From contig CAYURA010000001.1 in the NCBI GenBank assembly GCA_964446775.1, forward strand, positions 1 to 47,731: a stretch of DNA of 47,731 nucleotides, written 5' to 3'. Below are positions 6,101 to 19,682 of the stretch, in pieces. The notes under the pieces were generated by a model. It worked only from the letters and a program-made list of their open reading frames with translations, made no database searches and had not been told where the DNA came from. Positions within the stretch are counted from its first letter, which is position 1. Each line of letters starts with the position of its first letter. Source of the DNA: an uncultured Gammaproteobacteria bacterium (GTDB lineage Bacteria > Patescibacteriota > Patescibacteriia > Patescibacteriales > UBA12465). Both the position numbers and the translations under genes were made by a program.

Positions 6101-8481
6101 GTAGAACTAGCTAAAATGGCCTTCCCTGTAAAATTATTGTTTAATTCACTAGAGTCAATGATCTCAGCTGTACCAGTCGCTCCTGGAGACCAAACAGTCC
6201 AATAATTATTGATCCTACCCGATGTAGACTTATCACCTATCTCATCAGCGGCAAAATCAGCTCCCATAATTAAATTAACCTTAGATCCTTGCTGTACCCT
6301 CATAAGTTCATGACAGCCCTCAGAGTCAGCTGAACAATTTCCTAATTTATCATTAAAGTAGGGGTTAAAGAAAGGATTAGCAGACCAAGTTATTTGACCA
6401 GTGCTTGTACTATAGCTACCATGGGTAGAATAGCGCTGACAGCCAACCGAATCAGCACTACAACCGCTATAATCAAGAGTATTTTCTAAATAGGAAACCT
6501 TCTTGCCATCAGCATCATAGAAGGAGCTACAAGTATTATTAATTGGTTCACAAGTAGGAGAGTTAAAATTCCAAGTGCTTTGCTCAGATAGACAATAGCC
6601 ATAAGTTTCACAGCTGCCATCAGCATTCTCATTAATACAAGTTTTCTCATCTCCGCAATAGTCTTCTGCTCTAGTAATTGATATTTCATCACGCACAGCC
6701 TTATCTTCATAATAACTAGGAATAACATTAATATTTAAAAGCTGTGAACTAAAACCCTGAGCAGAACAATAGTTAAGTGGCGCTTTTAGCACCCAATCTG
6801 GGTCAACTAAACCTCGACACCAACCTTGATCAGCTACACTAAAGCCAGAACTATAGGAATTATGTTCATCATGAGCGCTAAAGCAAGATACCAAGTCCAT
6901 TAGGGTAGCTTTTTTATTATTAGAAGCTGCTATCTCCCAAGTTAGAGGAACTATACGATATTTTCTCAGAATTTGAATATTTCTTAAATTATAGGTACCC
7001 TCTGAAAAGTCAGTTGTAAATTGCCAATCAGCATGCAAACTACCTTGCTTCATTGCCTCAGCTACAGTTAATTTATCAATTGCTCCTTGCATAAAACGAT
7101 CATCAATTACGCATTCAGTTGGTCCTGGATTTTTTCGATCCCGACAAGCATTTAAAGATGCTAGAATATCGTAATCGCCTTTAATACTAAAATCAGGCTC
7201 AATAATCTTAGCTAAACTCTCTACAACCTTTCCTTCGCCATAGCGTATTTGAGGATCATAATCAGGATTTTTAAAGTCATTAGCATTAGAAGTACTTTTA
7301 ATAACATCCTTACCTAAATTACTCATTTGTGTATTAAAGAAACTAATTGCTAATTGGTTTAAGAAGACATTAGCTGCATCAATTAAGGCATCACCAGTAA
7401 ATTGTCCCATATTATTAATATACCCTTGCTCAGTCATCTCAAGTTTTCTTTGAGGATCTTTTGGTGTTCCGATCATGTTCCCAGCAATATCTCTTAAATC
7501 TAAATACCCATCATCAGCAATTAATTTCTTGTCAAATTCTTTTATAGCTTTCTCTTCATTCTGTTTTTGACCAACACTCATTTGATAGAAAATACCCAAA
7601 TCATTTGAATTTGGATTAAAAATATTTGAAAACTTTTGTAAAAAATGAGGGTCAGTATAATATTCATGTTGGCGTTTATATTCATCTTCCCAATTCTTCA
7701 CCATCTCTGAAGCTACGCAATTAGGTGCTTGTGGCCTTTGATTGTCTACTAAATTTAAAGCAATTCTTAACTTAAAATCTATAGATGAAGGTTCACAAAG
7801 CAATGGCGCTAAAGGAGATTCAGCTACTTGAACTGATTGAGTCACTCCATCTCCACCAGTCATAACCCCACTACATTGCATTAATTCATCATAGCAAGAT
7901 TTTTCAATATCAAGGGGGAGCCAAATATCCAAACATTCATTAAAGCAAGCTCCATATAATATGAAATCTGGTATTTTATCACATTTAGAAAAACACGCGT
8001 CTTGTTCATCGGCCTTCCTTTCAGGACAAGCATCATAAGCCTTCTTACACTGCTCGTTCTGTTTAGTCCCCTTTCCATCAGTTTTAAAATCAGCATTATT
8101 CCAATTTTTAACAGCTGATTCTAAAAAATCACCAGCGGCTTCATCACCTATTTTACCTAAATAGGTGCCCCAATCTTCAGTCACAAATAATGGTTTTTGG
8201 CCCTTACCACCAGAGCCAATCCATTTAGCGCTATCATAAGCAATTTTATTCATCGCCTTTCTAATTGCAGTTTGAAGCGCAGCTGCACCACCTTTTTCAT
8301 AGGCTTTTTTTGCAAAATCAGTAATTGGTTTTAGAATATTGGCAATCCCTTGATTAACGTCTTGTGCATAAACAACTCGTGGTATAAGTAAAGAAAAAGA
8401 AAATGAAAAAACTAAAATAAGTAGGAATAGAAAGGCTCGATATCTTAAGCGAGCTTGATTAAATTTAGAGCGCTTAGGCAT
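124..8481 (-). CDS. Giant (2785 aa) secreted cysteine-rich modular surface protein; no named family recognised for the whole protein
   Basis: Uninterrupted 8.36-kb ORF. Basic N-terminus plus hydrophobic helix ending VVYA|QD (signal peptide or anchor). About 106 Cys by hand count, clustered in linker blocks. Long Cys-free beta-sandwich-like blocks. C-terminal PKD-like domain. TAA stop. Confidence 0.85.
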   Translation of the reverse strand: MPKRSKFNQARLRYRAFLFLLILVFSFSFSLLIPRVVYAQDVNQGIANILKPITDFAKKAYEKGGAAALQTAIRKAMNKIAYDSAKWIGSGGKGQKPLFVTEDWGTYLGKIGDEAAGDFLESAVKNWNNADFKTDGKGTKQNEQCKKAYDACPERKADEQDACFSKCDKIPDFILYGACFNECLDIWLPLDIEKSCYDELMQCSGVMTGGDGVTQSVQVAESPLAPLLCEPSSIDFKLRIALNLVDNQRPQAPNCVASEMVKNWEDEYKRQHEYYTDPHFLQKFSNIFNPNSNDLGIFYQMSVGQKQNEEKAIKEFDKKLIADDGYLDLRDIAGNMIGTPKDPQRKLEMTEQGYINNMGQFTGDALIDAANVFLNQLAISFFNTQMSNLGKDVIKSTSNANDFKNPDYDPQIRYGEGKVVESLAKIIEPDFSIKGDYDILASLNACRDRKNPGPTECVIDDRFMQGAIDKLTVAEAMKQGSLHADWQFTTDFSEGTYNLRNIQILRKYRIVPLTWEIAASNNKKATLMDLVSCFSAHDEHNSYSSGFSVADQGWCRGLVDPDWVLKAPLNYCSAQGFSSQLLNINVIPSYYEDKAVRDEISITRAEDYCGDEKTCINENADGSCETYGYCLSEQSTWNFNSPTCEPINNTCSSFYDADGKKVSYLENTLDYSGCSADSVGCQRYSTHGSYSTSTGQITWSANPFFNPYFNDKLGNCSADSEGCHELMRVQQGSKVNLIMGADFAADEIGDKSTSGRINNYWTVWSPGATGTAEIIDSSELNNNFTGKAILASSTASTTSLYSNNITPLVPADLNIDSGETYTLSADVYLKTGSQVRAVLGDDYLAAAQVGTSSDWQHLSVTRDLSEKPLSELAFLISAHNESAGATEFAVKNLKLEMNSYDSGFSAYGTSKIYEKLIPKYLWNTCYEDPNSSKPDYRLKINAPLVCNNYVRQCNIDEAGCNHYTQVRTGFSVAAKTITTDYCDANCDGYNLYISRDNYFYSPQAEKMIPKNSQSCGALAVGCSEFTNLDEVAGGGETRAYYSQLKQCIKPGNECDEFYHWVGTEESGYQLKSVTLKTNASGTPFSTNDDSGTCNNISFNLTPSDPGFNPDCREYYNKEGDIAYRLTAHTVTCSEDCYSYRLSENNIDRTIISNNDCNDVDGHWDATRLQCYVCKNGGEWSDYHQACLYQAIPSESTSCQALDNGCREYNGSLGNNTRLIFANSFDYGLEGWEDGYGDKPLHSPVANSNNGQSMMYDKGANSPVPNLNPSPIVQLNRLINQANASTTPPSYIKKEVAYSVQTGKSYTLKFTASAATNTNVSIAFSNSSELATSSTSYFMAGVSNTFVVRGDKEWRSFELNLAELDHSVNAEEALIIKADNDFYIDNLILTEITDRYYLIRGTSQVPNICYYDILDRYQGSDYNLGCSAYLDRNQVPHYLRQFTKLCQNSSVGCEKMIDTANYDSFKANIWKDADDDKVCEADEPGCIKVEGDRFIYAVYDKTKMCNSADLGCSLLGQAVDSAHNLNWSDVYKLNNPNKYDSIICDYVDDGCEAWNDFDGGGVSYFKKPGTNLCTYRNSNDPETPGKNWYKAPVLRCDINNNGKIDTNELGTKICTSADDCPGNRPCIMDNNDYDCPVSYFETFGYGGGGRQVPVPSESVAVCEDVQSGCSEYIDPISSFSSNLIIDPSYENNSNAWIGSGSGSYQEVGIEPNSLYIFSVNTTETSLAYDVWVESSGVSVLQDDNYLGTSNPNLTISSSTPTQRYIFHSRNNSSVTVYGAHINHEIVLKKAIIAYQFKQQVNKDKGLCNGLVNQKNGCILLNERIMNGGEGLLPLTGYYNAATSTSGKKPVNCTDGNCDSNVLLKVRPDRTCASWLDCKTYAYDEAGEKVCYSVGECNVLDDKGECVNFIKANNEIVTPENNSNLGKLTGYSVLDKYSLSRMGEVGINTTAHFNFEEASPSLYCKTKDWKDCNFDVSLQYDSIVNSPTNAPTDYPAEGRAYLKVMQGHRIVPHSINSPITIPTSSANYLNFLVNTKDSGVKAEVSIYGYKIGNNYKDEVPIAREVFSSNQGWERKIMKFNGSGDIHADKIVIFLSASSTESGAEERYVYFDDINIEPVLDVGGGKYIAKECRLYPSQDSVSCSSVNSKVIQDGWLGYCLEHDPANKNVCLLWYPVDKISASLKSGRSSIGYQGAFPLNYCTEANGNFELVEKRTANKFWDDGDGNHPFDGYPDWQTGPLPGPTGISITGDCSWYGLPNIHCPEGYYIVNQIQVENNRAWCVPRLDKMLTYEGKRIVTKKIIPAAEGSLCEITYYEGWAPYNGLYMKPYNSNCADDQLVLCTNLDESKNANPPVRIFDKDYPTIIEDELGLISSSDPEKVYYPTCNRFTQVVDSAGNNQAWANRVSKSSAYLFETPLFFRSGNTYYGTSNQCDYQKEECIAKCEICETHLQLDCCQEDGICRGLCHDQYVGWCYKTSSILTSIPCDDPICLGNSNPCTRRDLFKFTAYGRNRELIPFGAATIPDNYNIFASPRIKLRNRYSDQINQIAFAGRPYGCRGEGCKNIGYCSLNPNVYCILDEEESVVNSFINENSCGSVNGTCIPLWDGKYLYEKTKDLSFKADNILKNIFLTSYEGYLFENDSYKSERGYDSDDPADKSSYYKSIYNGGNCTTSDCHKTENDDTFSKYWKYILPKIANVKVNGSSLSNPLTVSPGIYKLSFTTTIDKEQQPLRDLIIDWGDGSQQNLVNQNNRPNDSDPHVLYHYYTSSQTITIKIKVTDNWGFYHNWSL
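127..405 (-). other. PKD-like Ig-fold domain at the C-terminus of the giant protein (aa ~2693-2785)
   Basis: VSPGIYKLSFTTT...IIDWGDGSQQ...PHVLYHYY...ITIKIKVTDNWG fits the PKD pattern (WDFGDGS ... H.Y ... Y.V.L.V.D..G). The DWGDGS codons were checked at 268..285. Boundaries are approximate. Confidence 0.6.
2128..2649 (-). other. Cys-free block 4 of the giant protein (aa ~1945-2118), predicted beta-sandwich / CBM-like module
   Basis: No Cys between C1970 and C2129. Strand-like alternating pattern (KAEVSIYGYKIG, WERKIMKFNG, KIVIFLSASS, RYVYFDDINIEPV) resembles jelly-roll carbohydrate-binding modules. Boundaries are approximate. Confidence 0.4.
3112..3441 (-). other. Cys-free block 3 of the giant protein (aa ~1681-1790), predicted beta-sandwich module
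   Basis: No Cys between C1668 and C1806. SYENNSNAWIGSGSGSYQEV, SLYIFSVNTTE, YDVWVESSG, QRYIFHSRNNSSVTVYGA. Boundaries are approximate. Confidence 0.35.
4309..4833 (-). other. Cys-free block 2 of the giant protein (aa ~1217-1391), predicted beta-sandwich / CBM-like module
   Basis: No Cys between C1205 and C1408. FANSFDYGLEGWEDG, GKSYTLKFTASAATNTNVSIAF, KEWRSFELNL, DNDFYIDNLILTE (typical CBM-type F..G...W start and F.iDn..l end). Boundaries are approximate. Confidence 0.45.
5791..6291 (-). other. Cys-free block 1 of the giant protein (aa ~731-897), predicted beta-sandwich / CBM-like module
   Basis: No Cys between C723 and C925. NNYWTVWSPG, GETYTLSADVYLKTGSQVRAVLG, DWQHLSVT, ATEFAVKNLKLE. Boundaries are approximate. 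Confidence 0.45.
8365..8481 (-). other. Signal peptide / N-terminal membrane anchor of the giant protein (aa 1-39)
   Basis: MPKRSKFNQARLRYR (basic) + AFLFLLILVFSFSFSLLIP (hydrophobic) + RVVYA|QD (A-x-A-like cleavage context). Confidence 0.7.
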
Positions 8482-8510
8482 AGTTTTTCTTAGATAAATA
8501 AAGATGAAGA

Positions 8511-9203
8511 TTACTCTTCAGATGGATCTATTGATAATTCTTTTGGTAACTGTGATTCATTTAAACCCTCTCTATAAATCACCAACAGTTCTTCGTCACT
8601 TAAATTATTTATTAAATTGGTATCGATTCCACTAGTAATCAGTAGTGCTCTAATATTTTGAACATTAGCCTCACCACTAAGCAGAGTCATCATTACTTCC
8701 TCTAATTCATCGGGCGTATCTGAAGACAGCTCAGAAATTTCTGGAACAAGAACAATGCTATCTTGAGGTTTCTTTACTATTTCAATCTCATTGCTACAAT
8801 CTTGTCCCTCAGGACATAGTGGATCCGTCCCAGTTCTTACCTCATCATAATCACTAATGCCATCGCCATCAGTATCAACTAAATAAGGAGAAGTATGGTA
8901 AATGTTCATTTCTTCGGCATCAGTTAAGCCATCGCCATCAGTATCTAGATTGCCATCAGCATGCAAACTCGCTAATTGCTGAAACTCATCAATATGGCTA
9001 GCAAAATCTTTAGGTTTTTTATCTCCATAATCAAAGACACTAACTAAACGATAATTAATTTGCCAGAACCATAAGAATAGAATTGAAATACTAAGGAAAA
9101 CCATGAAAATAAAAGCATTCTTCTGTTTTTTAGGTAAACTTTTCAAGAAAGAAGAACGAGGCTCTTTTTGCCTAGACTCATTATCATTATTATTTAGAGG
9201 CAT
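8511..9203 (-). CDS. Single-pass membrane protein with two bacterial thrombospondin type-3-like Ca-binding repeats and an acidic tail
   Basis: Basic N-terminus then TM helix AFIFMVFLSISILFLWFW. DTDGDGLTDAEE and DTDGDGISDYDEVRTGTDP (D-x-D-x-D-G-x-x-D-x-x-E repeats, aa 83-132, nt 8808..8957). Ends 29 nt upstream of the giant gene on the same strand. Confidence 0.75.
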   Translation of the reverse strand: MPLNNNDNESRQKEPRSSFLKSLPKKQKNAFIFMVFLSISILFLWFWQINYRLVSVFDYGDKKPKDFASHIDEFQQLASLHADGNLDTDGDGLTDAEEMNIYHTSPYLVDTDGDGISDYDEVRTGTDPLCPEGQDCSNEIEIVKKPQDSIVLVPEISELSSDTPDELEEVMMTLLSGEANVQNIRALLITSGIDTNLINNLSDEELLVIYREGLNESQLPKELSIDPSEE

Positions 9204-9249
9204 AAACTAAAATATATAGACGAAAAAAATAAATTCATCATTGTCTAAA

Positions 9250-10104
9250 TTATAACACAAAATCACTAAGCGCCGCAACTAAATGCAACCAATTGATTAA
9301 TGATAAATTTTCTGCTCTTGATTTTAAATCTATTCCAGCTGTTTTAAAAGATTGATCAATCAAACTCGCTTCACATTTAAGACCAGCTATCAAATTATTT
9401 TTCAACATTTTTCTCTTAGCACTAAATCCAATCCGAGCAAATCTAAAAAATGTTTTTGCTTGCTCTAAGTCTTCTTTATTGGGACTACTCTTTTCATTAA
9501 CAAAACGCAAAATAGCGCTATCTACTTTAGGGGCTGGCCAAAAATCAGAGGCTTTAACAGTTCTGATAATCTCCACTTGACCGTAATAGGCGAGGGAAAG
9601 AGAGAGTAAAGACATATCTGGTTCACGCCTAAGGCAACGCTCGGCTACTTCTTTTTGTAGCATTAATACTAAAGACTTTGGTGGTTTAATACTAGAAAGG
9701 AAAGTCCTTAAAAAAATAGAGCTAATATTATAAGGCAGATTGGCCACCACTTGATAGCTTTCATTATTTTTAAAATAATCACTAGGATTAAGTTTCAATA
9801 TATCTTGATTAACTATTTCTACATTAGTAACATTTTGCGAATCTATTGCTAAACTTAAAATACTAGCTAAAGTATCGTCTAACTCTACCGCTACCACTCG
9901 CTTCGCTTTCAAAGCTAAACGAGCAGTTAAAAAACCTAAGCCAGGACCCACCTCTAAGATTGAGTCTTCCTTATTTAAATTAGCTGCTTTAATAATCGCT
10001 TCATAGATACCAGAGTTAATAAGGAAATTTTGCCCTTTGCTACGAGCTGGGGAGATATCATACAAGCGACATAATTCTTTAGTTTGTTTAGCAATATCTA
10101 GCAT
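9250..10104 (-). CDS. rsmA: 16S rRNA (adenine1518/1519-N6)-dimethyltransferase
   Basis: KGQNFL, SAM-binding EVGPGLGFLT and VANLPYNISS motifs; 284 aa, typical length. Confidence 0.9.
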   Translation of the reverse strand: MLDIAKQTKELCRLYDISPARSKGQNFLINSGIYEAIIKAANLNKEDSILEVGPGLGFLTARLALKAKRVVAVELDDTLASILSLAIDSQNVTNVEIVNQDILKLNPSDYFKNNESYQVVANLPYNISSIFLRTFLSSIKPPKSLVLMLQKEVAERCLRREPDMSLLSLSLAYYGQVEIIRTVKASDFWPAPKVDSAILRFVNEKSSPNKEDLEQAKTFFRFARIGFSAKRKMLKNNLIAGLKCEASLIDQSFKTAGIDLKSRAENLSLINWLHLVAALSDFVL

Positions 10105-10107
10105 AGA

Positions 10108-12531
10108 TTAAACCACAAAATTAATTAATTTATCAGGGATAAAAATTGTTTTCTTAATCTCCTGACCTGCTAACCACTTAATCGCTATTTCTTTAGCTTT
10201 AGTTATTACTTCTGATTCCAAAACATCTGCATCTAAAACTAACTGAGCTCTTAACTTCCCATTTACTTGAATCACATAATTAATAGTTTCCGCTTTTATC
10301 AACTCAGGATTATAATCGGGCCAAGAAGATTGGAAGATACTATTTGCTTCCCCTAAACGATGCCAAATATCTTCAGCTAAATGAGGAGCAAACGGAGCTA
10401 AAATTTGCGCTAATTTTTTTGCCTGTTCTAAAGAAATTGCTAAAACTTGATGAACTTTGAAATAGTCATTTAATTGATTAACTAAAATCATCATTGCTGA
10501 CACTGCAGTATTAAAATGAAAATCTTCAATATCTTCCGTCACTTTTTTAATTGTTTTGTGTAACAAGGACAAGCTAAACCGATCTTCTCTAACTGCTGAT
10601 TTATTAGATAAAAATAGAGAATTTAATTTATCTAAAAATTTTCTTGAACCAATTAAACTCTTAACATTCCAAGCTGCTGCTTGATCAAAAGGACCCATAA
10701 ACATGACATAGATTCTTAAAGCATCAGCTCCATAGAGCTCAATCATATCATCAGGATTAATCACATTGCCCCAGCGCTTACTCATCTTGCGTCCATCTTG
10801 ACCCATTACTAGGCCAACATGGCGTAATTTCTTAAACGGTTCAAGCTGACTAACAATGCCAATATCATATAAAAACTTATGCCAAAAACGGGCGTAAATC
10901 AAATGTCTAGTAGCATGTTCAGCTCCACCAACATAAAGATCAACTGGCGACCAATATTTCTCTCTATCTCTAGCCACTAATTCCTGTTCATTTTGGGGAT
11001 CCATATATCGCAAATAATACCAACAAGATCCTCCCCATTGTGGCATAGTATTTGTCTCCCTTTTAGCTGGCCCTCCACATTGAGGACAAATTGTATTAAC
11101 CCAATCACTAATAGTGGCAAGCGGTGATTCTCCAGTTCCAGACGGTTGATAGCTCTCAACTGGTGGTAGTATAACTGGCAAATCTTTTTCAGGCACTGCT
11201 ACAACTCCACATTTTTTACAATGAACTAAGGGAATTGGTTCACCCCAATAGCGTTGACGTGAATAGACCCAATCTTTTAATTTATAATTAACCTTTCTGC
11301 GTCCTAATTTTTTTTCTTCTAAACAGAGCATCATTTTTTCTCTAGCTTCAAGACTAGGTAAGCCAGAAAAATGTGCCGAATTGATTAAAACTCCATCATC
11401 TGTATAGACGCTTTCAATCTCTGTGGAACACGCTACATTCTCACTAATCACCTGTTTCACCTCTAGCTGATATTTCTTAGCAAATTGCCAATCCCGCTCA
11501 TCATGAGCTGGAACAGCCATCACCGCCCCAGTGCCATAAGATTTTAAAACATAGTCAGCCACATAGACAGGAATCTTCTCTTGATTAAAAGGATTAAGAG
11601 CTACAACACCATCTAAAATAATACCTGTTTTTTCTTTATTTAACTCTCCTCTCTCTAAATCACTTTTATGCTTTGCTAGATCAAGATACTGACTCAATTC
11701 TGGCCAATTTTGAATTTGATCTTTTAGTTTTAATACTAATTGATGCTCAGGAGCTAAGACCAAATAGCTACAACCATAAATAGTGTCTAAACGAGTTGTA
11801 AAAACGGTAATTTTATCTTCAAGATTATTTAAATGAAAATCAATTTCCGCTCCTTCACTCCTGCCAATCCAATTCCGTTGCATATCTTTAATTGACTCCT
11901 CCCACTCAGTTAAATCATCTAAGTCAGCTAACAATCTATCAGCATAATCAGTTATTTTTAAAACCCATTGTCTTAGTGGCCTTTGTTCGATTACACTACC
12001 ACAACGCTCGCAAAGACCATTTTCTAGATCTTCATTAGCTAAGCCCGTAGAACATGAAGGACACCAATTAATAGGCGCAAATGATTCATAGGCCAAACCT
12101 TTCTTCCACATTTGTAAAAAAATCCATTGTGTCCATTTATAGTATTTTGGGTCAGTAGTATCTAACTCTCGACTCCAGTCATAGGAAAAACCTAATAAAT
12201 CTAGTTGTTGTCTATACCTAATAATGTTTTTTTCAACTGCTATTTTAGGATGAACCTTGTTCTTTAAAGCATAATTTTCTGCTGGTAAACCAAAGGCATC
12301 CCAACCCATTGGATGCAAAACATTATAACCCTGCATCATTTTCATACGACTAATAATGTCAGTAGCGATATAGCCTTTAGGGTGACCGACATGCAAGCCT
12401 TCGCCTGACGGATAAGGGAACATATCTAAAATATATTGCTTCGGCTTTTTATCATCTTCAATAACATGATATAGGTTGATATCTTGCCAATATTTTTGCC
12501 ATTTTTTTTCTAAAGAGAGATGTTGATACAT
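10108..12531 (-). CDS. leuS: Leucyl-tRNA synthetase
   Basis: PYPSGEGLHVGHP (HIGH-type), KMSKRWGN (KMSKS), CP1 editing region TTRLDTIYG, zinc-type CPSC/CERC pairs; 807 aa. Confidence 0.97.
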   Translation of the reverse strand: MYQHLSLEKKWQKYWQDINLYHVIEDDKKPKQYILDMFPYPSGEGLHVGHPKGYIATDIISRMKMMQGYNVLHPMGWDAFGLPAENYALKNKVHPKIAVEKNIIRYRQQLDLLGFSYDWSRELDTTDPKYYKWTQWIFLQMWKKGLAYESFAPINWCPSCSTGLANEDLENGLCERCGSVIEQRPLRQWVLKITDYADRLLADLDDLTEWEESIKDMQRNWIGRSEGAEIDFHLNNLEDKITVFTTRLDTIYGCSYLVLAPEHQLVLKLKDQIQNWPELSQYLDLAKHKSDLERGELNKEKTGIILDGVVALNPFNQEKIPVYVADYVLKSYGTGAVMAVPAHDERDWQFAKKYQLEVKQVISENVACSTEIESVYTDDGVLINSAHFSGLPSLEAREKMMLCLEEKKLGRRKVNYKLKDWVYSRQRYWGEPIPLVHCKKCGVVAVPEKDLPVILPPVESYQPSGTGESPLATISDWVNTICPQCGGPAKRETNTMPQWGGSCWYYLRYMDPQNEQELVARDREKYWSPVDLYVGGAEHATRHLIYARFWHKFLYDIGIVSQLEPFKKLRHVGLVMGQDGRKMSKRWGNVINPDDMIELYGADALRIYVMFMGPFDQAAAWNVKSLIGSRKFLDKLNSLFLSNKSAVREDRFSLSLLHKTIKKVTEDIEDFHFNTAVSAMMILVNQLNDYFKVHQVLAISLEQAKKLAQILAPFAPHLAEDIWHRLGEANSIFQSSWPDYNPELIKAETINYVIQVNGKLRAQLVLDADVLESEVITKAKEIAIKWLAGQEIKKTIFIPDKLINFVV

Positions 12532-12542
12532 AAAATAATAGA

Positions 12543-13304
12543 TTATAGTTCCAAGCCGATTGGCGCATGATCCGAACCCTGCACTTGATCAAGGATATAG
12601 GCTTTTTTAAGCTGATTTTGTAATTTAATTGATACTACAAAGTAGTCAATCCGCCAGCCAATATTCCTTGTTTTAGCAGCCGTCCTAAAACTCCACCAGC
12701 TATACTGTACTCTATCACTATTAATTAGACGGAAGCTATCTAAATAACCATGTGATAATAGTTTACTAAACCACGTTCTTTCTTCTGGAGTAAATCCAGC
12801 ATTGCCTTCATTTTCTACAGGACGAGCTAAGTCAATTTCATTATGAGCGACGTTAAAATCACCAGTAATAATAACTGGTTTATTTTTTTCTAACTTCAAA
12901 ATATATTTTAATAAAGCATCATTAAATGATTGCTTATACCCGAGTCGCGATAATTCTTGATTAGCATTGGGGAAATAGACATTTAAAAGATAATATTCTT
13001 TTAATTCCAAGGTTTGTATTCTTCCCTCAATATCATATTGCTCAAGAGCTAAACCATTGCTTATATTAATAATGTCCACTTCTTCTTTAATTAAAATAGC
13101 GGTACCACTATAACCAGGTCTTTTAGCTCCATGCCAATAATTACGATAGCCTGGAATATTAATTTTTAAATCTTCTCTTTTCTGATCATCTATTTTAATC
13201 TCTTGTAAGCAAACAATATCTGCTTTTTGCGTAATTAGAAAGTCGAAAAAATTTTTCCTTAAAACTGCTCTTATCCCATTAATATTCCAAGAAATTATTT
13301 TCAT
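12543..13304 (-). CDS. xth: Exodeoxyribonuclease III (AP endonuclease)
   Basis: MKIISWNINGIRA, CLQEIK, TGDFNVAHNEIDL, GSDHAPI motifs; 253 aa. Confidence 0.93.
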   Translation of the reverse strand: MKIISWNINGIRAVLRKNFFDFLITQKADIVCLQEIKIDDQKREDLKINIPGYRNYWHGAKRPGYSGTAILIKEEVDIINISNGLALEQYDIEGRIQTLELKEYYLLNVYFPNANQELSRLGYKQSFNDALLKYILKLEKNKPVIITGDFNVAHNEIDLARPVENEGNAGFTPEERTWFSKLLSHGYLDSFRLINSDRVQYSWWSFRTAAKTRNIGWRIDYFVVSIKLQNQLKKAYILDQVQGSDHAPIGLEL

Positions 13305-13340
13305 AAAGCTTATCTCAATTTATAGTCGTATTAGTATTAA

Positions 13341-13369
13341 TAGCCACAAAAAACTGAATATGTTATAAT
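13341..13369 (+). promoter_or_regulatory. Candidate sigma70-type promoter for the dsbA-like/por unit
   Basis: TAGCCA - 17 nt - TATAAT with an upstream TG (tgtTATAAT), about 60 nt before the ATG at 13430. The AT-rich background makes chance matches likely. Confidence 0.35.
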
Positions 13370-13392
13370 ATATTTAATTAAGTAATAAACTA

Positions 13393-13421
13393 AGTATAAG
13401 ATAAATATTATCTTTTTTCAA
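13393..13421 (-). promoter_or_regulatory. Candidate divergent promoter for the xth-leuS-rsmA string
   Basis: Minus strand TTGAAA - 17 nt - TATACT, about 90 nt upstream of the xth start (13304). Confidence 0.3.
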
Positions 13422-13429
13422 CTAACCAT

Positions 13430-14185
13430 ATGAGTTTAGAAGAACGGGTAAACTATTTAAAATTAAAAGAAAAACATAAACGAAAATTGAAACCCTGGTA
13501 TAAAAAATGGTGGGGCTTAATTTTAATTGCGGTCTTTGTTTTGATTATTTCTGGCTTGATCGCTTCTGGCATTTATCTTGTTAAAGAGGTTAAAAGAATT
13601 CAAGCAGGAAACCTGGATATTGAAACTCAAAAAGAACTAGATAGAATTACTCAAGCAATTGATGGGACTAGTGAACATTTCAGTTTAGGGCCGATCAACG
13701 CGCCAATAAAAATTATGGCGTTTCTTGATTATTCTTGTCCTCACTGCAATGAAGCAATGGCAACTATACATAATTTAAACAAAAAATATCCCACTGAAGT
13801 TCGTATCAGTATAAGAGACTATCCAGCCCTAAGGATGGCTTCAATTAATCAGGCATTGGCCGCACACTGTGCTGGCGAACAAAATAATTTCTGGCAAATG
13901 AGTGATAGTTTATTCGAAAACCAAGATATTCTAATTAATTTAAACGAAAGTAATATTGATTTAGAATTAAAAAATATTGCTAAGGGACTAAAACTAGATG
14001 AAGCTCAATTTGAGGATTGCTTAAAGAACAAAAAATATCTCTATCGCTTAAATGATAATTTCGCAGATGCAGAGTTTTTAGATGTTAAGGGAACCCCTAC
14101 TTGGTTTATCAATCGTTATAAAATAACAGGCTATTATCCTGAGGAGAACTTTGTTAATCTAATTGAAGGCCTTTTAGCTCTATAG
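13430..14185 (+). CDS. Membrane-anchored DsbA-family thiol:disulfide oxidoreductase
   Basis: N-terminal TM helix WWGLILIAVFVLIISGLIASGIYLV. Thioredoxin-fold active site DYSCPHCNEA. DsbA-like length (251 aa). Stop lies 1 nt before porG. Confidence 0.85.
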   Translation: MSLEERVNYLKLKEKHKRKLKPWYKKWWGLILIAVFVLIISGLIASGIYLVKEVKRIQAGNLDIETQKELDRITQAIDGTSEHFSLGPINAPIKIMAFLDYSCPHCNEAMATIHNLNKKYPTEVRISIRDYPALRMASINQALAAHCAGEQNNFWQMSDSLFENQDILINLNESNIDLELKNIAKGLKLDEAQFEDCLKNKKYLYRLNDNFADAEFLDVKGTPTWFINRYKITGYYPEENFVNLIEGLLAL

Positions 14186-14186
14186 T

Positions 14187-14762
14187 ATGATTAGCTTTCG
14201 TATTCATGGTCGAGGTGGACAAGGAGCAATTGCTGCTTCTGAGTTAATTGCCTTGGCTGCTTTTCACCAAGGTTTCTATGCTCAATCATTGCCTTTCTTT
14301 GGAGTTGAGAGAAGCGGAGCTCCAGTTCAAGCTTATGTCCGCATCAGTGACAGAGCAATTATTACTCACTCACAAGTCAAGGAGCCTGATTATTTGATTA
14401 TTCAGGATGATACTTTAATTGCTGTTAAAGATGTTTACTTAGGACTGAATCCAAAAACTAAAATATTAATCAATAGTCAAGAAACCAGTGAAATTTTAAG
14501 AAAAAAAATCCGTTTGAAAATAAAAAATAACGACATTCTGACGGTTAATGCAAGTCAAATTGCTCTAAATATTATGAGAAGAAATATTATTAACACTTCT
14601 CTTCTCGGTGCTTTTTCAGCTCATTATAATTTACTTAGTAAAGAAAATTGTCAACAAGCAATTATAGATAAATTTAGCAAAAAAGGCCGTGGCACTGTTA
14701 AACTAAATCAAAAAATATTTCTTTTCACTTATGATCTCTGCCAAAAAAATGCCAATAACTAA
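14187..14762 (+). CDS. porG: Pyruvate/2-oxoacid:ferredoxin oxidoreductase, gamma subunit
   Basis: FRIHGRGGQGAIAASELIALAAF is the typical gamma-subunit N-terminus; 191 aa; canonical position before delta. Confidence 0.88.
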   Translation: MISFRIHGRGGQGAIAASELIALAAFHQGFYAQSLPFFGVERSGAPVQAYVRISDRAIITHSQVKEPDYLIIQDDTLIAVKDVYLGLNPKTKILINSQETSEILRKKIRLKIKNNDILTVNASQIALNIMRRNIINTSLLGAFSAHYNLLSKENCQQAIIDKFSKKGRGTVKLNQKIFLFTYDLCQKNANN

Positions 14763-15015
14763 GCGCCCCCTAACTAAAGCTGGTTCTGCCCAAGAGAATA
14801 AAACTGGATCTTGGCGAAAAGAACATCCAGTAGTTGATAAAAATAAATGTATTTCTTGCTCTTTATGCGCTAAACTTTGTCCCGACAATTGTATTTACAT
14901 GCGTGAAACAAAAAAAGGTCACCTCATTGCTGAGCCCAATTTAGACTATTGTAAAGGCTGTGGCATTTGTGCTGAAGAATGCCCCGTCAAAGCGATTAGA
15001 ATGGTCAAAGATTAA
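14731..15015 (+). CDS. porD: Pyruvate:ferredoxin oxidoreductase, delta subunit (2x[4Fe-4S] ferredoxin)
   Basis: CISCSLCAKLCP and CKGCGICAEECP cluster motifs. The true start may be the internal ATG at 14749 (MPITKRP). Confidence 0.88.
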   Translation: MISAKKMPITKRPLTKAGSAQENKTGSWRKEHPVVDKNKCISCSLCAKLCPDNCIYMRETKKGHLIAEPNLDYCKGCGICAEECPVKAIRMVKD

Positions 15016-15021
15016 AATATT

Positions 15022-16158
15022 ATGCCCTTAAAAAGGAATAAACAATTCATCAGCGGCTCTCAAGCAATTGCTCAAACTATTAAGGAACTCCAAGTAGACG
15101 TAATTTCTGCTTACCCAATTACTCCACAAACTCATATATTGGAAGAGTTAGCTCAGTTTAAAGAGGATCATCAAGCTGATTATGAATATATCCGGGCTGA
15201 AAGTGAATTTGCGGCTGCTTCTATTATACTCGGTGCTAGTGCTGCTGGTGGTCGCACTTATAGCGCCACTAGCTCCCAGGGAGTCCTGCTTATGATGGAA
15301 GTTTTATTCAATGCTTCGGGACTAAGATTACCCCTAGTAATGACTGTTGCTAATCGAGCTTTAAGCGCACCTATTAATATTTTTAATGATCACAGCGATG
15401 CCATGGCTATGAGAGACTCAGGTTGGCTAATGTTCTTTGCTGAAAATCATCAAGAAGCTATTGATTTACATATTATTGCCTATAAAATAGCTGAAAGTTT
15501 AGAATTACCAGTAGCTATAAATGTTGATGGTTTTATTATCACTCATGCCTATCAAGAAGCCTTTATTCCTAATAGGAAAATCATTGAATCATATCTACCA
15601 AAATACAAACCTATTCCTAACAGTTATTTAGACTCAAATAGGCCTGTTAGTTTAGGAGGATACTATGATTCCGTGCATTATCAAAAAACTCGCCAAGAAT
15701 TAAGCAAAGATATCCAAAAATCACAGAAAAAAGTCAGTCAAGAATTTAAAGCCTGGCAAAAAATATGGCCAACTAAAAAAGCCCTTAAGTCAACTTATGA
15801 TGATGGCTTAATTGAATATTGTGGCCCTAAAAAGCCAAAAGCTATTCTCATTGCTCTTGGCTCTCTTTGTGGGACGATTAAAGAAGCCATTAAGAGCGAG
15901 ACTAACGTAGGTATAATTAAGATTAGAAGTTTTAGACCATTTCCAAAAGATAGTTTAAATAAAATTATTCCAATTAATTGTCAGCTGTATATTTTAGAAA
16001 AAACTATAGCCATTGGTAGTTTTGGACCACTATATCAAGAAGTGATTTCTAGTCTTAATCATTTTAAAGGCAAAGCTACTAATTATATATTAGGCTTAGG
16101 TGGTCAAGATATTAATGAAACAGATATTTTGAATATTATTAAGGCTAATAGAAGCTAG
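15022..16158 (+). CDS. porA: Pyruvate:ferredoxin oxidoreductase, alpha subunit
   Basis: GSQAIAQTIKELQVDVISAYPITPQTHILEEL N-terminal signature; 378 aa. Confidence 0.9.
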   Translation: MPLKRNKQFISGSQAIAQTIKELQVDVISAYPITPQTHILEELAQFKEDHQADYEYIRAESEFAAASIILGASAAGGRTYSATSSQGVLLMMEVLFNASGLRLPLVMTVANRALSAPINIFNDHSDAMAMRDSGWLMFFAENHQEAIDLHIIAYKIAESLELPVAINVDGFIITHAYQEAFIPNRKIIESYLPKYKPIPNSYLDSNRPVSLGGYYDSVHYQKTRQELSKDIQKSQKKVSQEFKAWQKIWPTKKALKSTYDDGLIEYCGPKKPKAILIALGSLCGTIKEAIKSETNVGIIKIRSFRPFPKDSLNKIIPINCQLYILEKTIAIGSFGPLYQEVISSLNHFKGKATNYILGLGGQDINETDILNIIKANRS

Positions 16159-16180
16159 ATCTAGCTTAAGCCAAAAGTTT

Positions 16181-17185
16181 ATGAAAAAAAGCCATTGGAA
16201 GAAACAATTTACCATATTCATTGCTTTATTCTTGTTTTCTTTTATATTCTCTTTTAATTTAGCTCAGGGTGAGTTATTGCCTAGTGTCAAAAATCCAATT
16301 GTATTTCAAGCCCAAACTACCATTCCTGGTGTTTTTACAAAAGGTGAAAAAATTCCAATAAAAAAACAAGATACCAGTTTTATTGCAGATATGATTAAGA
16401 ATTTCTATAGTTACGGTATTGGCATCGCTGGCATATTGGCCGCTATTATGTTGATGGCTGGTGGACTTGTTTGGCTAACTTCAGCTGGCAGCAGTGACAA
16501 AATTTCCCAGGCTAAGAATCTCATGTCTGGCAGTATTGTTGGCCTAGCATTACTCTTTAGTTCCTGGATAATGCTCAGAACTATTAATCCAGCTTTAGTA
16601 GATTTCAGGATAACAAGTATTCATACGATCGAAAAAGTTACAAGGGGTTGTTGTGAATATAATAATAAAGCTGAAAGCATGGCTACTAAGGATTGTAAAT
16701 CACAAAATGGAAAATTTTTTGCACCTGATGACCAAGGTTTTTATAGTCCATATAAAGGGAAATGCTCATTAAATAAAGTTTCTTGTAATATTGGCACTAG
16801 TCCGTATACTGAGAATGTTTATCTTTGTTTTGAATCTGATTTAAAAGTAGCACCTGGAAATAACCTTGGACAAGAACTTAAACCTGGAAGGTGCGCTAAT
16901 TATAAGGAATGTGATAATGTTTTTACTAGTTGTCTTGATGTTGAAGATGGTAAACCTTGCAAAGACGCAAAAGGCAGACTAGCAGTGGTAAATAGTTATT
17001 GCTTCAACATGATGTGTTATTTAGGGCATGGGAAAGAAGGCGAGCCTTGCGGTCAAAAAGGTGGCAGCTGTATCGCCACTTCTAAGTGTAAAGATTTGGG
17101 GTTGCCAGGTGACTATGATAACGATTCCGGTGGTCGGATATGTGAAAATAGTAGCTTAAAGTGTTGTTACAAAGTTAACAAGTAA
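16181..17185 (+). CDS. Exported protein: signal peptide + VirB2/TrbC-like (T4SS-pilin-like) TM hairpin + 18-Cys C-terminal domain
   Basis: Signal peptide ...FSFNLAQ|G. Hairpin YGIGIAGILAAIMLMAGGLVWLTSAGSSDKISQAKNLMSGSIVGLALLFSSWIML (two TM helices joined by a short polar loop). All 18 Cys lie in aa 156-334. Inserted between porA and porB with 22-nt and 5-nt gaps. Confidence 0.7.
   Translation: MKKSHWKKQFTIFIALFLFSFIFSFNLAQGELLPSVKNPIVFQAQTTIPGVFTKGEKIPIKKQDTSFIADMIKNFYSYGIGIAGILAAIMLMAGGLVWLTSAGSSDKISQAKNLMSGSIVGLALLFSSWIMLRTINPALVDFRITSIHTIEKVTRGCCEYNNKAESMATKDCKSQNGKFFAPDDQGFYSPYKGKCSLNKVSCNIGTSPYTENVYLCFESDLKVAPGNNLGQELKPGRCANYKECDNVFTSCLDVEDGKPCKDAKGRLAVVNSYCFNMMCYLGHGKEGEPCGQKGGSCIATSKCKDLGLPGDYDNDSGGRICENSSLKCCYKVNK
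16376..16636 (+). repeat. Paralogous pilin-hairpin module, copy 1 (aa 66-152 of the 334-aa protein)
   Basis: Aligns without gaps to 18435..18695. Roughly 55-60 percent amino-acid identity by hand, including the identical run GIAGILAAIMLMAGG. The DNA is also visibly similar (ggcat.gctggcat.tt.gccgc.attatg.t.atggctggtgg). Confidence 0.8.
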
Positions 17186-17190
17186 ATTAA

Positions 17191-18042
17191 ATGTCTGTGA
17201 GCTACCAGAGCAATCTCACTCCAGGCCATAATGCTTGTAGTGGTTGTGGACAATTAAGCGCAGTTCAAGCAGTTATGCGAGGACTAACAAAAGATACTAT
17301 CCTGGTAAGTTCAACTGGTTGTTTAGAGGTAACTACCACTGCTCACCCTCAAAGTGCTTGGAATTTGGCCTGGTTCCATTCTCTATTTGAAAATGCTGCT
17401 CCAGTAGCTAGTGGCATCAAAGCGATGTTAAATAAAAAAAAGAAAAAAACTAAAGTTGTGGTCCAAGCTGGAGATGGAGCTACTTTTGACATTGGACTAG
17501 GTTTACTTAGTGGCCTTTGGGAAAGAAATGATGAGGTGCTATATATTTGTTATGACACTGAAGTCTATTCCAACACTGGCATTCAGGCTTCTGGAGCCAC
17601 TCCTTTTGGTGCTAGCACTAAAACTAATCCGGGTAGCAATAAACAAATGAAGAAAGATATGATAGCAATCGCTTTAGCTCATAAATTAAATTATGTCGCT
17701 CAAAGTAGCGCTGGTTTTCCTGATGATATTACTAGAAAGATTAAAAAAGCCTTAAGTGCTACTGGCCCAAGTTACATCCAAATATTAGCTCCATGTGTTC
17801 CTGGCTGGGGTATACAAACTAATGAAAGCATTAAAGCAGCTAAGCTAGCAGTTCAAAGTGGGCTATATCCTCTACTTGAATACGAAAATGGAAAGTTGAT
17901 TAGCTCTAACATTAAAACTAGTGAAAGTAAATTAGTACTACAATATCTCCGACTTCAAAGAAGATTTAAACATCTAACAGATGACGAAGTAAAAGAAATA
18001 ATTAGATTAGCTGAAATAAATAAGAAAAAATATAAAATATGA
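17191..18042 (+). CDS. porB: Pyruvate:ferredoxin oxidoreductase, beta subunit (TPP-binding)
   Basis: GHNACSGCGQ, TPP motif QAGDGATFDIGLGLLSG, YDTEVYSNTG; 283 aa. The TGA stop overlaps the next ATG (ATGA). Confidence 0.9.
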   Translation: MSVSYQSNLTPGHNACSGCGQLSAVQAVMRGLTKDTILVSSTGCLEVTTTAHPQSAWNLAWFHSLFENAAPVASGIKAMLNKKKKKTKVVVQAGDGATFDIGLGLLSGLWERNDEVLYICYDTEVYSNTGIQASGATPFGASTKTNPGSNKQMKKDMIAIALAHKLNYVAQSSAGFPDDITRKIKKALSATGPSYIQILAPCVPGWGIQTNESIKAAKLAVQSGLYPLLEYENGKLISSNIKTSESKLVLQYLRLQRRFKHLTDDEVKEIIRLAEINKKKYKI

Positions 18043-19196
18043 CTCAAAATTTAAATAATGTGGTAAAAATAATTATCCTGAGTTCTCTAACTTTCGTTTT
18101 AACTTTAATATCAACTAATGATGTGCAGGCAAAAGCTTACACTTGCACTTGGCGCATAAAAACAACCTCAATGCAGGGTGCTGGTGTGCTAGATAAAGGA
18201 TGCTATTCGAATGAACTTTTTTCAAAATATGAAAATTGTGACCCAGAAACAAAACCACCTGATGAGGGAACCAATAGTGCCATAGAAAAAAAAATTGTAT
18301 GTTGTTGCCCTGATCCTGGTTATAATAAGCCCGAACCTAAAGCTGATATAATTATCCCTAGCTTATCCATTAAAATTAATACCATTGAACTAAGTCAAGA
18401 AATTTTTTGTCAGGATGAAGATTGCTATTATCCCTGGATAGCCGAATATATTAATGGAATATATAAATATGGATTTGGCATAGCTGGCATCTTAGCCGCC
18501 ATTATGCTCATGGCTGGTGGTGTCATTTGGTTAACTTCCGCTGGCGATGCTTCTAAAATAGGTCAAGCAAAGAACTTGATCACTGGAAGCGTAATTGGCT
18601 TGATTGTTCTTAGCACTAGTTATATTATTTTAGAAACAATAAATCCAGAATTAACCAATCTAAAACATATTACTATTAAAGGGATAGAAAAAATTGCGCC
18701 AAGTGAAGTAAAACGTCCTAGTGATGAAGCTGAGAATCCATATCAAGAGGGCTGCGATGCTTCTAGAAATGGAGATTATGAGATTTGTAAACAATATGCT
18801 AACGAAACACCTAAAGATATGTTAAAGATTTCTGGCACTTCTCAATACGCTAAAGAAGAAGTGGTAAATAAGTATCTATTAGCCATGGAATGTGTTAAAG
18901 ATAAAAATGATGGTAAAAAATTATTTACCGTAGGAGTTGCTTGGCGCTCACCAAAAAAACAATTAGAGCTATTTGAGAGTTTAGGTCACCCCAAAGCAGC
19001 CTATCCGTGTTGTTCTAATCATGGAAAAGGCACTGCCTTAGATTTAAATAGAACAGACGGAGTTAAGATGACCTGGGGATATAATGAGAGCTCAGGATTA
19101 TTAGAATGCATGAATGCTCAAGGTTTATACGCTAAATTAAAAGGCCAGAATGGAGACCCTGACGAACCATGGCATTGGTCTCTTAGTGGAAGATAA
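18039..19196 (+). CDS. Exported protein: signal peptide + 8-Cys N-domain + VirB2/TrbC-like TM hairpin + M15 (VanY/D-Ala-D-Ala carboxypeptidase-like) peptidase domain
   Basis: Signal peptide ...NDVQA|KA. Hairpin YGFGIAGILAAIMLMAGGVIWLTSAGDASKIGQAKNLITGSVIGLIVLSTSYIIL. M15 motifs AWRSPKKQLELF, CCSNHGKGTALD (S-x-H-x-x-G-x-A-x-D) and DEPWHW (E-x-x-H). Confidence 0.75.
   Translation: MTQNLNNVVKIIILSSLTFVLTLISTNDVQAKAYTCTWRIKTTSMQGAGVLDKGCYSNELFSKYENCDPETKPPDEGTNSAIEKKIVCCCPDPGYNKPEPKADIIIPSLSIKINTIELSQEIFCQDEDCYYPWIAEYINGIYKYGFGIAGILAAIMLMAGGVIWLTSAGDASKIGQAKNLITGSVIGLIVLSTSYIILETINPELTNLKHITIKGIEKIAPSEVKRPSDEAENPYQEGCDASRNGDYEICKQYANETPKDMLKISGTSQYAKEEVVNKYLLAMECVKDKNDGKKLFTVGVAWRSPKKQLELFESLGHPKAAYPCCSNHGKGTALDLNRTDGVKMTWGYNESSGLLECMNAQGLYAKLKGQNGDPDEPWHWSLSGR
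18435..18695 (+). repeat. Paralogous pilin-hairpin module, copy 2 (aa 133-219 of the 385-aa protein)
   Basis: See copy 1 at 16376..16636. Confidence 0.8.
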
Positions 19197-19213
19197 AAGA
19201 ATGAAACAAGTAT

Positions 19214-19245
19214 AAAAAAGCTATTCAATTGAATAGCTTTTATAC
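19214..19245. terminator. Bidirectional rho-independent terminator between convergent units
   Basis: Perfect palindrome AAAAGCTATTC-AATT-GAATAGCTTTT (11-bp stem, 4-nt loop), flanked by an A-run on one side and a T-run on the other. Lies between the stop at 19196 (+) and the stop at 19281 (-). Confidence 0.65.
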
Positions 19246-19280
19246 AATTACCTTATTAATCATTATTATCCAAGCTCTAG

Positions 19281-19682
19281 CTAAGCCCCACGATCCATTG
19301 CCTCATTAGCCAATCTATCAGCATCTTTATTATTTTCTCTTAAAACATGTGTAATCGTGTATGATTTAAATTGACAAAGTAGATTGCGCACTTCTAAAAA
19401 AAGTATTGCCAACTCTTTATTCTTCACCCGATATTCTCGCTTAACTTGTTTTACTATCAGTTCACTATCTAAATAACAATAGACATTTTTTGCTTTTAAT
19501 TCAACTGCTTTTTTTAAGGCTGCAATTAAAGCCTGATACTCTGCTTGATTGTTAGTGGCTACGCCAATATATTTTGAAATTTCTGCCAAAATATTTCCTT
19601 GCTCATTCGTTAATACTGCCCCAATACCAGCTGGCCCAGGATTGCCGCGCGCACCACCATCAGAATATATAATGATAGTCAT
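19281..19682 (-). CDS. rnhA: Ribonuclease HI-type RNase H
   Basis: IIYSDGGARGNPGPAGIGAV, NNQAEYQALIAAL, LDSELIV, NKDADRLAN (DEDD catalytic set); 133 aa. Confidence 0.85.
   Translation of the reverse strand: MTIIIYSDGGARGNPGPAGIGAVLTNEQGNILAEISKYIGVATNNQAEYQALIAALKKAVELKAKNVYCYLDSELIVKQVKREYRVKNKELAILFLEVRNLLCQFKSYTITHVLRENNKDADRLANEAMDRGA

Follow-up and report, generated by a model that had tools for sequence, protein, structure and literature searches.

Seven genes at one locus

The DNA analysed here is a 47,731-nt stretch (the window: positions 1 to 47,731, forward strand, of contig CAYURA010000001.1 in assembly GCA_964446775.1) in which a block of seven plus-strand open reading frames (ORFs) combines the four subunit genes of a por-type 2-oxoacid:ferredoxin oxidoreductase with three genes for predicted envelope proteins, namely a DsbA-like thiol:disulfide oxidoreductase and two exported proteins, P334 and P385 (334 and 385 aa), that each carry a VirB2-like membrane hairpin. 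An earlier, sequence-only reading of this DNA had assigned it to the Patescibacteria, which proved correct, and had described a packed seven-gene unit that keeps the canonical porG-porD-porA-porB order. The ORF coordinates, the junction sequences and searches of Pfam and NCBIfam agree with it at every coordinate, junction and gene identity. The seven ORFs span 13430-19196:

13430-14185, plus strand: dsbA-like gene; 1-nt gap to porG
14187-14762, plus strand: porG; 32-nt overlap with porD
14731-15015, plus strand: porD; 6-nt gap to porA
15022-16158, plus strand: porA; 22-nt gap to the P334 gene
16181-17185, plus strand: gene for the 334-aa protein P334; 5-nt gap to porB
17191-18042, plus strand: porB; ATGA overlap with the P385 gene
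18039-19196, plus strand: gene for the 385-aa protein P385, the last of the unit

All four subunit types (alpha, beta, gamma and delta) are represented, with Pfam matches far above the gathering scores. The porG product corresponds to the gamma subunit (Pfam POR, E 3.2e-35; TIGR02175 PorC_KorC, 169.6 bits with a cut-off of 81.1) and the porD product to the delta subunit, a 2x[4Fe-4S] ferredoxin (TIGR02179 PorD_KorD, 97.6 bits with a cut-off of 60.05; Fer4 dicluster) whose cluster motifs CISCSLCAKLCP and CKGCGICAEECP are two copies of CxxCxxCxxxCP (C40/43/46/50 and C74/77/80/84). The porA product matches POR_N (E 3.6e-67) and PFOR_II (E 1.4e-17) as an alpha subunit, while the porB product matches TPP_enzyme_C (E 2.1e-21) as a beta subunit and features four cluster Cys residues (C16, C19, C44 and C202) and a thiamine pyrophosphate motif, GDGATFDIG...YSNTG (GDG...N). 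Judged from their sequences, the cofactor motifs of PorD and PorB are intact. The best NCBIfam matches are PorA_Arch for PorA (378.5 bits, under the 550-bit equivalog cut-off) and PorB PRK11865 for PorB (312.9 bits, under the 405-bit cut-off), with Vor models scoring only slightly below the best Por models. The four proteins would therefore be described most safely as a 2-oxoacid:ferredoxin oxidoreductase, PorG-PorD-PorA-PorB, whose specificity for pyruvate is likely rather than established because both scores lie under the equivalog cut-offs. We refer to it below as a pyruvate:ferredoxin oxidoreductase (PFOR) with this qualification.

The product of the first gene matches Pfam Thioredoxin_4 (E 1.9e-25, 90.4 bits) and DSBA (E 6.7e-11). 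Its N-terminus consists of a K/R-rich segment followed by a membrane anchor (aa 25-54, from hydropathy), and the protein features a C103-P-H-C106 active site, a further pair of Cys residues (C147/C197) and a cis-Pro loop of sequence GTP (G221-T-P223), all of which are invariant in 13 orthologues. The CPHC tetrapeptide is the active site of Escherichia coli DsbA as well. Together, these predicted features identify a membrane-anchored, extracytoplasmic thiol:disulfide oxidoreductase of the DsbA/BdbD type.

P334 and P385 both match Pfam PF18895, a pilin family of type IV secretion systems (T4SS_pilin; T4SS), above its cut-off of 26.6 bits (30.6 bits, E 3.6e-7, and 30.9 bits, E 3e-7, respectively). 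In each, a signal peptide precedes a pair of hydrophobic helices with a short polar linker between them, the hydropathy segments lying at 9-30, 75-104 and 114-132 in P334 and at 5-29, 141-169 and 179-201 in P385. The paired helices of the AlphaFold2 models lie at 66-100/105-135 and 132-165/171-201, respectively. The following domains are predicted:

16388-16582 (P334 aa 70-134), plus strand: VirB2-like two-helix membrane hairpin, with the signal peptide upstream
16628-17182 (P334 aa ~150-334), plus strand: C-terminal ectodomain of ~185 aa, beta-rich, with all 18 Cys
After the P385 signal peptide, plus strand: N-terminal ectodomain with 8 Cys
18435-18629 (P385 aa 133-197), plus strand: VirB2-like hairpin
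18804-19193 (P385 aa ~256-385), plus strand: C-terminal domain of a LAS/M15B zinc peptidase, with 6 Cys

The two proteins are homologous in the hairpin only, at 50-61% identity, and all of their Cys residues, even in number (18 in P334; 8 + 6 in P385), fall in the predicted ectodomains. Pfam, hydropathy and the Cys map are thus in keeping with the topology first proposed for these genes, that of exported, Cys-rich membrane-hairpin proteins accompanied by an anchored disulfide oxidoreductase. In both families the Cys columns are kept and the loops are variable. Of the hairpin, only a loop of ~12 residues (SAGSSDKISQAKN) is cytoplasmic, and this loop is generic to the family and also occurs in proteins encoded away from por genes (see below). 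Structural likeness to the T-pilus VirB2 (8exh_A) is weak and non-significant (TMt 0.57, E 9.8), and the ectodomains, at ~200 aa, are atypical for VirB2. No further hairpin paralogues were found in the window.

Amongst 20 homologues of P334, the hairpin is nearly invariant and ~14 Cys columns are kept, while the sequence between them is hypervariable. AlphaFold2 models the ectodomain as beta-rich, with predicted local distance difference test (pLDDT) values mostly of 80-89, and the fold has no significant match in PDB or BFVD. When the Cys-rich domain alone was searched against 1.84 billion representative sequences, 12 proteins were retrieved, 10 of which are 325-401 aa long with the domain at the C-terminus, and this exhaustive search gave no link to a known domain. 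The P334 ectodomain is a lineage-restricted, fast-evolving domain, predicted to be rich in disulfides, that probably serves as an adhesin or recognition module.

The C-terminal domain of P385, which the sequence-only reading had taken for a cell-wall peptidase, gave a weak VanY match in Pfam (E 0.0056) and, as a single sequence, no match amongst PDB sequences. Searched as a profile, it matched VanXYc (4mur, E 5.4e-7) and also Ply500 and LdcB. Its AlphaFold2 model (pLDDT 79.5 overall, 85-98 in this domain) was matched by Foldseek to VanXYc (4mut, E 1.6e-6) and LdcB (4mph, E 6.6e-6) with a probability of 1.00. R303, H328, D335, E376 and H379, within motifs that include SNHGKGTALD and EPWH, are invariant in 34 homologues, and the conserved Cys residues of a CCSNH motif adjoin a zinc ligand. 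Residues, profile and predicted fold confirm the assignment to LAS/M15 peptidases of the VanXY/LdcB type. In homologues encoded after porB, other cell-wall modules replace M15 (NlpC/P60, Amidase_2, 3D, M15_4 and C39-like), and the predicted hydrolase modules of these proteins appear to be interchangeable.

Conservation of the block and of the dsbA-pilin pair

To place the locus in context, a PorB-based scan was made with one genome per GTDB species, which yielded 29 loci whose gene order was checked by tblastn and ORF maps. Lineage labels follow the titles of the records, and several of these titles are plainly wrong ('uncultured Gammaproteobacteria', 'Clostridia'). The block is carried by all 21 loci whose flanks are of Falkowbacteria or Patescibacteria type (L001-L021), over a range of PorB identity from 84 to 53%, and is also present in contigs to which P334 and P385 homologues led (L030, L031, L032, L038, L039 and L041). 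The arrangement, with its tight junctions, recurs in 21 species representatives and at least seven further independent contigs, which is well outside what chance would give. The shared order is leuS-xth (reverse) / dsbA-porG-porD-porA-pilin(1-2)-porB-pilin(0-2) / rnhA-recJ (reverse), with junctions mostly of -11 to +30 nt. In the window, the housekeeping flanks are leuS and xth upstream and rnhA, recJ, lepA and murJ downstream. One or more pilin genes are present in the porA-porB interval of every locus that covers it. The copy after porB is absent from L010, L013, L016 and L020, and a Cys-rich non-pilin ORF takes its place in L017. Large gaps between the pilin gene and porB in L020 were considered as extra genes and rejected, as they hold frameshifted ORFs in a metagenome-assembled genome (MAG) in which recJ is also fragmented; the split pilin-like gene and recJ of this locus (L020:5541-6600 and 8641-10352) reflect either assembly indel errors or pseudogenes.

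This recurrence bears on whether the arrangement is an artefact of assembly, a chimera, or else a recent event in which a mobile, duplicating envelope cassette entered the por operon, the latter being one of two explanations offered from the sequence alone. The hairpin-only paralogy of P334 and P385 had first hinted at duplication, and our analysis found no support for either event. Chimerism is excluded because the block recurs in many independent assemblies from many studies, amongst them a 977-kb record titled as a chromosome (L003, CP066698.1), and the survey shows that the interleaving is syntenic across species rather than unique to this assembly. Recent insertion is refuted by the same survey, given that loci sharing the block differ in PorB down to 53% identity and that genes of the two pilin positions fall into distinct, old clades: in a neighbour-joining tree of 56 hairpin domains (~78 residues), genes of the porA/porB position separate from those after porB, while tandem extra copies are recent. 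By this tree, the hairpin duplication is old and each position is orthologous across loci. In addition, G+C content across the block (0.30-0.39) is as in the flanks, with no compositional break, and no transposase or repeat boundaries were seen at the block. We consider an artefact or a recent event extremely improbable.

One locus departs from the common order. In L040 (1364-8380), an inversion puts xth and dsbA-porG-porD on the opposite strand, and xth-porA-pilin-porB-pilin stays intact. Both halves of L040 still mix por and envelope genes, and the protein encoded after its porB bears a Peptidase_C39_2-like module. In outgroups (Actinomycetota, Zixibacteria, archaeal and Bacillota MAGs), porA and porB are adjacent or overlapping, without a pilin gene. 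A distant patescibacterial locus (L025, PorB identity 46%) features a gene for a 180-aa response-regulator receiver protein between porA and porB (6439-6981), with enolase after porB (7989-9290); therefore, the porA/porB junction has accepted foreign genes more than once.

The dsbA-like gene and the pilin-like genes also occur together without por genes. A distant P334 homologue (P0058) is encoded 1 nt 3' of a DsbA-like gene and 5' of uvrA in L035 and L036. A metagenome scan with a DsbA alignment gave 80 loci, in which pilin-like neighbours were called with a hairpin hidden Markov model. Five of these, all lacking por genes, have a pilin-like gene directly 3' of dsbA (L077, L098, L112, L116 and L119), and two further non-por loci have one near dsbA on the other strand. 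The series dsbA, Cys-rich T4SS_pilin gene, uvrA, again without por genes, is found in L035, L036, L112 and L119, and in three of these it lies downstream of a divergent SBP_bac_5 gene (L035:5214-10184, L112:6001-11199 and L119:2679-7607). The T4SS_pilin proteins of L035, L112 and L119 are 452-528 aa long and have 12-28 Cys, outside the hairpin. Therefore, dsbA and a Cys-rich VirB2-like gene are a recurring pair in their own right, between whose members the por genes are found in this lineage. In L033, the gene for another distant relative of the hairpin proteins (P0061) is the last of a genuine VirB6-PrgI-TraC-like-VirB4 cluster, with recG adjacent.

Transcription of the block and the relation between its por and envelope genes

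Three features outside the coding sequences bear on how the block is expressed:

13341-13369, plus strand: promoter candidate from a consensus scan, with a -35-like TAGCCA, a 17-nt spacer and a TG-extended -10, TGTTATAAT, at 13361-13369
13413-13421, plus strand: TTTTTTCAA motif in the presumed 5' untranslated region (UTR), just upstream of the dsbA start codon
19210-19245, strand not assigned: 36-nt palindromic hairpin where the convergent P385 and rnhA genes meet, a candidate bidirectional terminator

An extended -10 upstream and a strong palindromic terminator downstream had both been noted from the sequence, and the -10 box and the hairpin are both present. The extended -10, TGTTATAAT, sits 69 nt 5' of the first ATG, that of dsbA, and TGnTATAAT is found 46-105 nt 5' of dsbA in 21 of 23 loci (the window included), the other two having near matches. 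When 28 blocks of ~5-6 kb were scanned in full, this motif headed dsbA in 21, plus L004, where the dsbA start had been called too early. Elsewhere inside the 28 blocks it occurs only four times, three times upstream of internal genes at non-conserved positions and once within the last gene of the window's block. The downstream hairpin has a predicted energy of -14.6 kcal/mol (z = -5.57), equalled by none of 200 shuffles, and is the sole strong hairpin of the block. Its T-run is better on the minus strand, the strand on which the terminator scan flagged it; this, together with its position between convergent genes, makes it a candidate bidirectional terminator.

TTTTTTCAA has the same relative position in most of 23 aligned dsbA upstream regions (L001-L041) and shows no enrichment in the rest of the window. 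None of the four start codons that were read directly (dsbA, P334, porB and P385) has a visible Shine-Dalgarno-like sequence 5' of it. A stem in the 5' UTR (AAGATAA/TTATCTT) was considered as an attenuator and rejected, its energy being like that of shuffles (z = 0.05) and the stem being unconserved in other loci; an Rfam scan of 13000-19500 returned sub-threshold chance matches only.

One promoter and one transcript for the block are supported by the conserved TGnTATAAT box, by the fact that no extended -10 inside the blocks is conserved, and by junctions that have no space for terminators. Obligatory co-expression was the other explanation offered by the sequence-only reading, and such co-expression would fit this architecture. 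Alternatively, the genes could have been brought together by genome compaction, with the pilin-like genes transcribed from their own promoters inside upstream coding regions. The DNA is 65% A+T, promoter-like hexamer pairs are many in the block (for example at 15890-15917, within porA; the scan found 37 promoter-like sites where 26.6 were expected), and isolated TGnTATAAT boxes are found inside the blocks of L002, L013 and L040. However, no internal extended -10 is conserved across loci, the overlaps and gaps of 1-22 nt leave terminators no space, and the only strong hairpin follows the last gene, so we regard independent expression as unlikely.

We favour an explanation in which the block is a composite operon of long standing in Falkowbacteria-type Patescibacteria, inherited vertically, and give it, as a whole, a probability of about 0.6. 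Two functionally separate modules would be interleaved and most likely co-transcribed from the one extended -10 promoter. The first would be a cytoplasmic PFOR, PorG-PorD-PorA-PorB, most likely acting on pyruvate, and the second an envelope set of a DsbA-type oxidase and two anciently duplicated VirB2-like hairpin proteins. Once P334 and P385 have been exported by Sec, the anchored DsbA-like enzyme most likely forms the disulfides of their ectodomains. The hairpins of the two proteins could serve as membrane anchors for the attached modules, or could display them on a VirB2-type fibre if a T4SS encoded elsewhere in the genome assembles them. P385 would trim peptidoglycan stem peptides, either the cell's own or those of a host, whereas P334 may present a fast-evolving, disulfide-stabilised surface fit for recognition or adhesion; a surface or cell-wall role is what we infer for both. 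The tie to por would be one of shared transcription, probably strong and constitutive, in which the envelope genes use the promoter of the central fermentative enzyme. A physical or catalytic interaction of the envelope proteins with PFOR is unlikely. That PFOR electrons feed the re-oxidation of DsbA was rejected by reasoning, since PFOR yields reductant and DsbA requires an oxidant.

Four points weigh against the composite-operon explanation. The case for co-transcription is architectural, and weaker internal promoters without a TG extension are possible in DNA of this A+T content. No DsbB, BdbC or VKOR partner was found amongst the Pfam-scanned proteins of the 47.7-kb window. Likewise, no T4SS gene was found in the window by Pfam (26 of 28 long ORFs; the two omitted, 27113-31078 and 31115-34465, are of RNA polymerase subunit size), nor in the flanks of related loci. 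Finally, the porA-porB pilin gene is kept even in the inverted L040, and such positional conservation is stronger than simple hitch-hiking predicts.

The last point invites a functional explanation, in which the porA-porB hairpin protein of Falkowbacteria-type Patescibacteria is no passenger. It could be a PFOR accessory, such as a membrane tether that places the enzyme or, through co-translational insertion, the polycistronic mRNA at the membrane; or the operon could set the dose of a disulfide-rich host-contact and wall-cutting apparatus strictly by por transcription, and hence by fermentative flux. Such coupling is favoured by the one or more pilin genes that separate porA from porB in all loci covering the interval, by the survival of the porA-pilin-porB-pilin linkage through the L040 inversion and by the por linkage of P334/P385 relatives in nine of nine contexts inspected amongst the closer matches. 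However, the cytoplasmic part of the hairpin is the short generic loop also present in the non-por dsbA-pilin-uvrA proteins, and every large domain is extracytoplasmic. Furthermore, related por operons function without a pilin gene (L022 and L024), an unrelated gene occupies the same junction in L025 and the copy after porB is dispensable in several genomes. We therefore find coupling unlikely; if it is true, the whole lineage would have its energy state hard-wired to epibiotic attachment.

Several observations concern the surroundings of the block. The window's first 44 kb hold no plus-strand block other than the por unit. GC skew (plus strand) is near zero or positive only over it (13001-19000), with values of -0.1 to -0.3 elsewhere; this change of sign is due to the skew following the coding strand. 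Within the block, one further element was read directly:

16152-16167, strand not assigned: perfect 16-nt palindrome AAGCTAGATCTAGCTT, covering the porA stop codon in the porA/P334 spacer

It has no related copy elsewhere in the window. A junction motif, TCTAGCTTAAGCC, with an apparent repeat near 19275, was dropped, as its one match compares with about two expected by chance. Towards the left end of the window, a 2785-aa ORF without a Pfam match (124-8481, minus strand) adjoins a 230-aa bacterial TSP3-repeat protein (8511-9203, minus strand); the por block of L040 is likewise neighboured by a TSP3-repeat protein, together with an RrnaAD methyltransferase. A 503-aa ORF without a Pfam match (25513-27024, minus strand) lies between murJ and a 1321-aa ORF, while the right end of the window carries a gene for a cell-wall hydrolase with LysM and Peptidase_M23 domains (46006-47349, plus strand) and a tRNA-Ala(TGC) gene (47654-47729, plus strand).

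Comparison with known systems

The components of the block all belong to known families, and related arrangements are already known. In the literature searched, we found no description of a por-pilin linkage or of a DsbA-pilin linkage in the candidate phyla radiation (CPR). Because they are undescribed there, four features appear to be new: the lineage-wide embedding of envelope genes between PFOR subunits, the dsbA-pilin pairing in Patescibacteria, modular pilin-hydrolase proteins, and pilin proteins with a novel Cys-rich domain. A host-attached way of life is assumed for Patescibacteria, and a locus conserved precisely throughout the clade, with genes of this kind inside the operon of the main ferredoxin-reducing enzyme, offers a testable case of how a surface apparatus is expressed in reduced genomes. 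The dsbA-pilin pairing predicts oxidative folding of surface proteins in organisms without a respiratory chain and raises the question of what re-oxidises DsbA, while the proteins that join a pilin to a cell-wall hydrolase or to a novel Cys-rich domain may act in host recognition and wall remodelling. Should the linkage be one of shared expression only, the locus would be a tidy case of operon ratcheting in small genomes, and mainly a synteny marker.

Four-subunit PFOR operons of the form porG(C)-porD-porA-porB are known in Thermotoga, Pyrococcus and Helicobacter. The present genes share with them the same four subunits, the gamma-delta-alpha-beta order and predicted intact cofactor motifs, but here a 1-kb gene for an exported membrane protein splits porA from porB, a dsbA-like gene leads the unit and a pilin-peptidase gene ends it.

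In Patescibacteria, arrays of VirB2-like pilin genes (PF18895/PF04956) that are broken up by non-pilin genes have been reported (PMC12102498). The same paper reports recG, comF and radA as common members of T4SS loci in the ABY1 class and, citing work on S. epibionticum, counts VirB2-like pilins amongst the few gene sets with a demonstrated essential role in the host-attached lifestyle. P334 and P385 resemble those pilins in their Pfam family, their signal peptide and two-helix hairpin, and the multiple divergent paralogues per genome, as well as through the L033 relative encoded beside VirB6, PrgI and VirB4 with recG nearby. Unlike with those arrays, no T4SS gene was found in the 47.7 kb examined here (26 of 28 long ORFs scanned), and the interrupting genes encode subunits of a central metabolic enzyme. 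Compared with classical VirB2, P334 and P385 are 3-5 times larger and have large ectodomains that are Cys-rich or predicted to be enzymatic.

For the oxidoreductase, the nearest parallels are Gram-positive DsbA-type enzymes that fold pilus or pseudopilus subunits, such as BdbD/BdbC with ComGC in Bacillus subtilis and MdbA with sortase pilins in Actinomyces and Corynebacterium; in addition, thioredoxin-like TrbB/TraF proteins belong to F-type T4SS. In common with these systems, the locus combines a predicted anchored extracytoplasmic thioredoxin-fold enzyme, with a CPxC motif and a cis-Pro loop, and a position beside genes for Cys-containing exported substrates of pilin type. It differs in that no DsbB, BdbC or VKOR was identified in the window and in that the suggested substrate relation is drawn from adjacency and Cys content alone.

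P385 shares with LAS peptidases of the M15B family (VanXYc, VanY, LdcB and phage Ply500) the R / SxHxxGxAxD / ExxH residue set and a predicted VanXY/LdcB fold. It differs from them in that this domain is the last part of a fusion, after a Cys-rich N-terminal domain and a VirB2-like hairpin, and in the Cys residues of its CCSNH motif. T4SS-associated cell-wall hydrolases (VirB1, PrgK and TcpG) offer a second comparison: like VirB1 or PrgK, P385 could make a local opening in the wall for a structure that spans the envelope.

The sequence-only reading had known of no precedent for a cytoplasmic central-carbon enzyme sharing translationally coupled junctions with envelope proteins in need of extracytoplasmic disulfides. 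This was an overstatement, given the interrupted VirB2-like arrays noted above, the foreign gene at the porA/porB junction of L025 and the existence of mixed-function operons. A classical example of the latter is secY-adk-map within the spc ribosomal-protein operon, which resembles the present block in joining unrelated envelope and cytoplasmic genes in one tight, widely conserved unit. Unlike in spc, the foreign gene here parts two subunits of one complex, and the arrangement is confined to one lineage of Patescibacteria.

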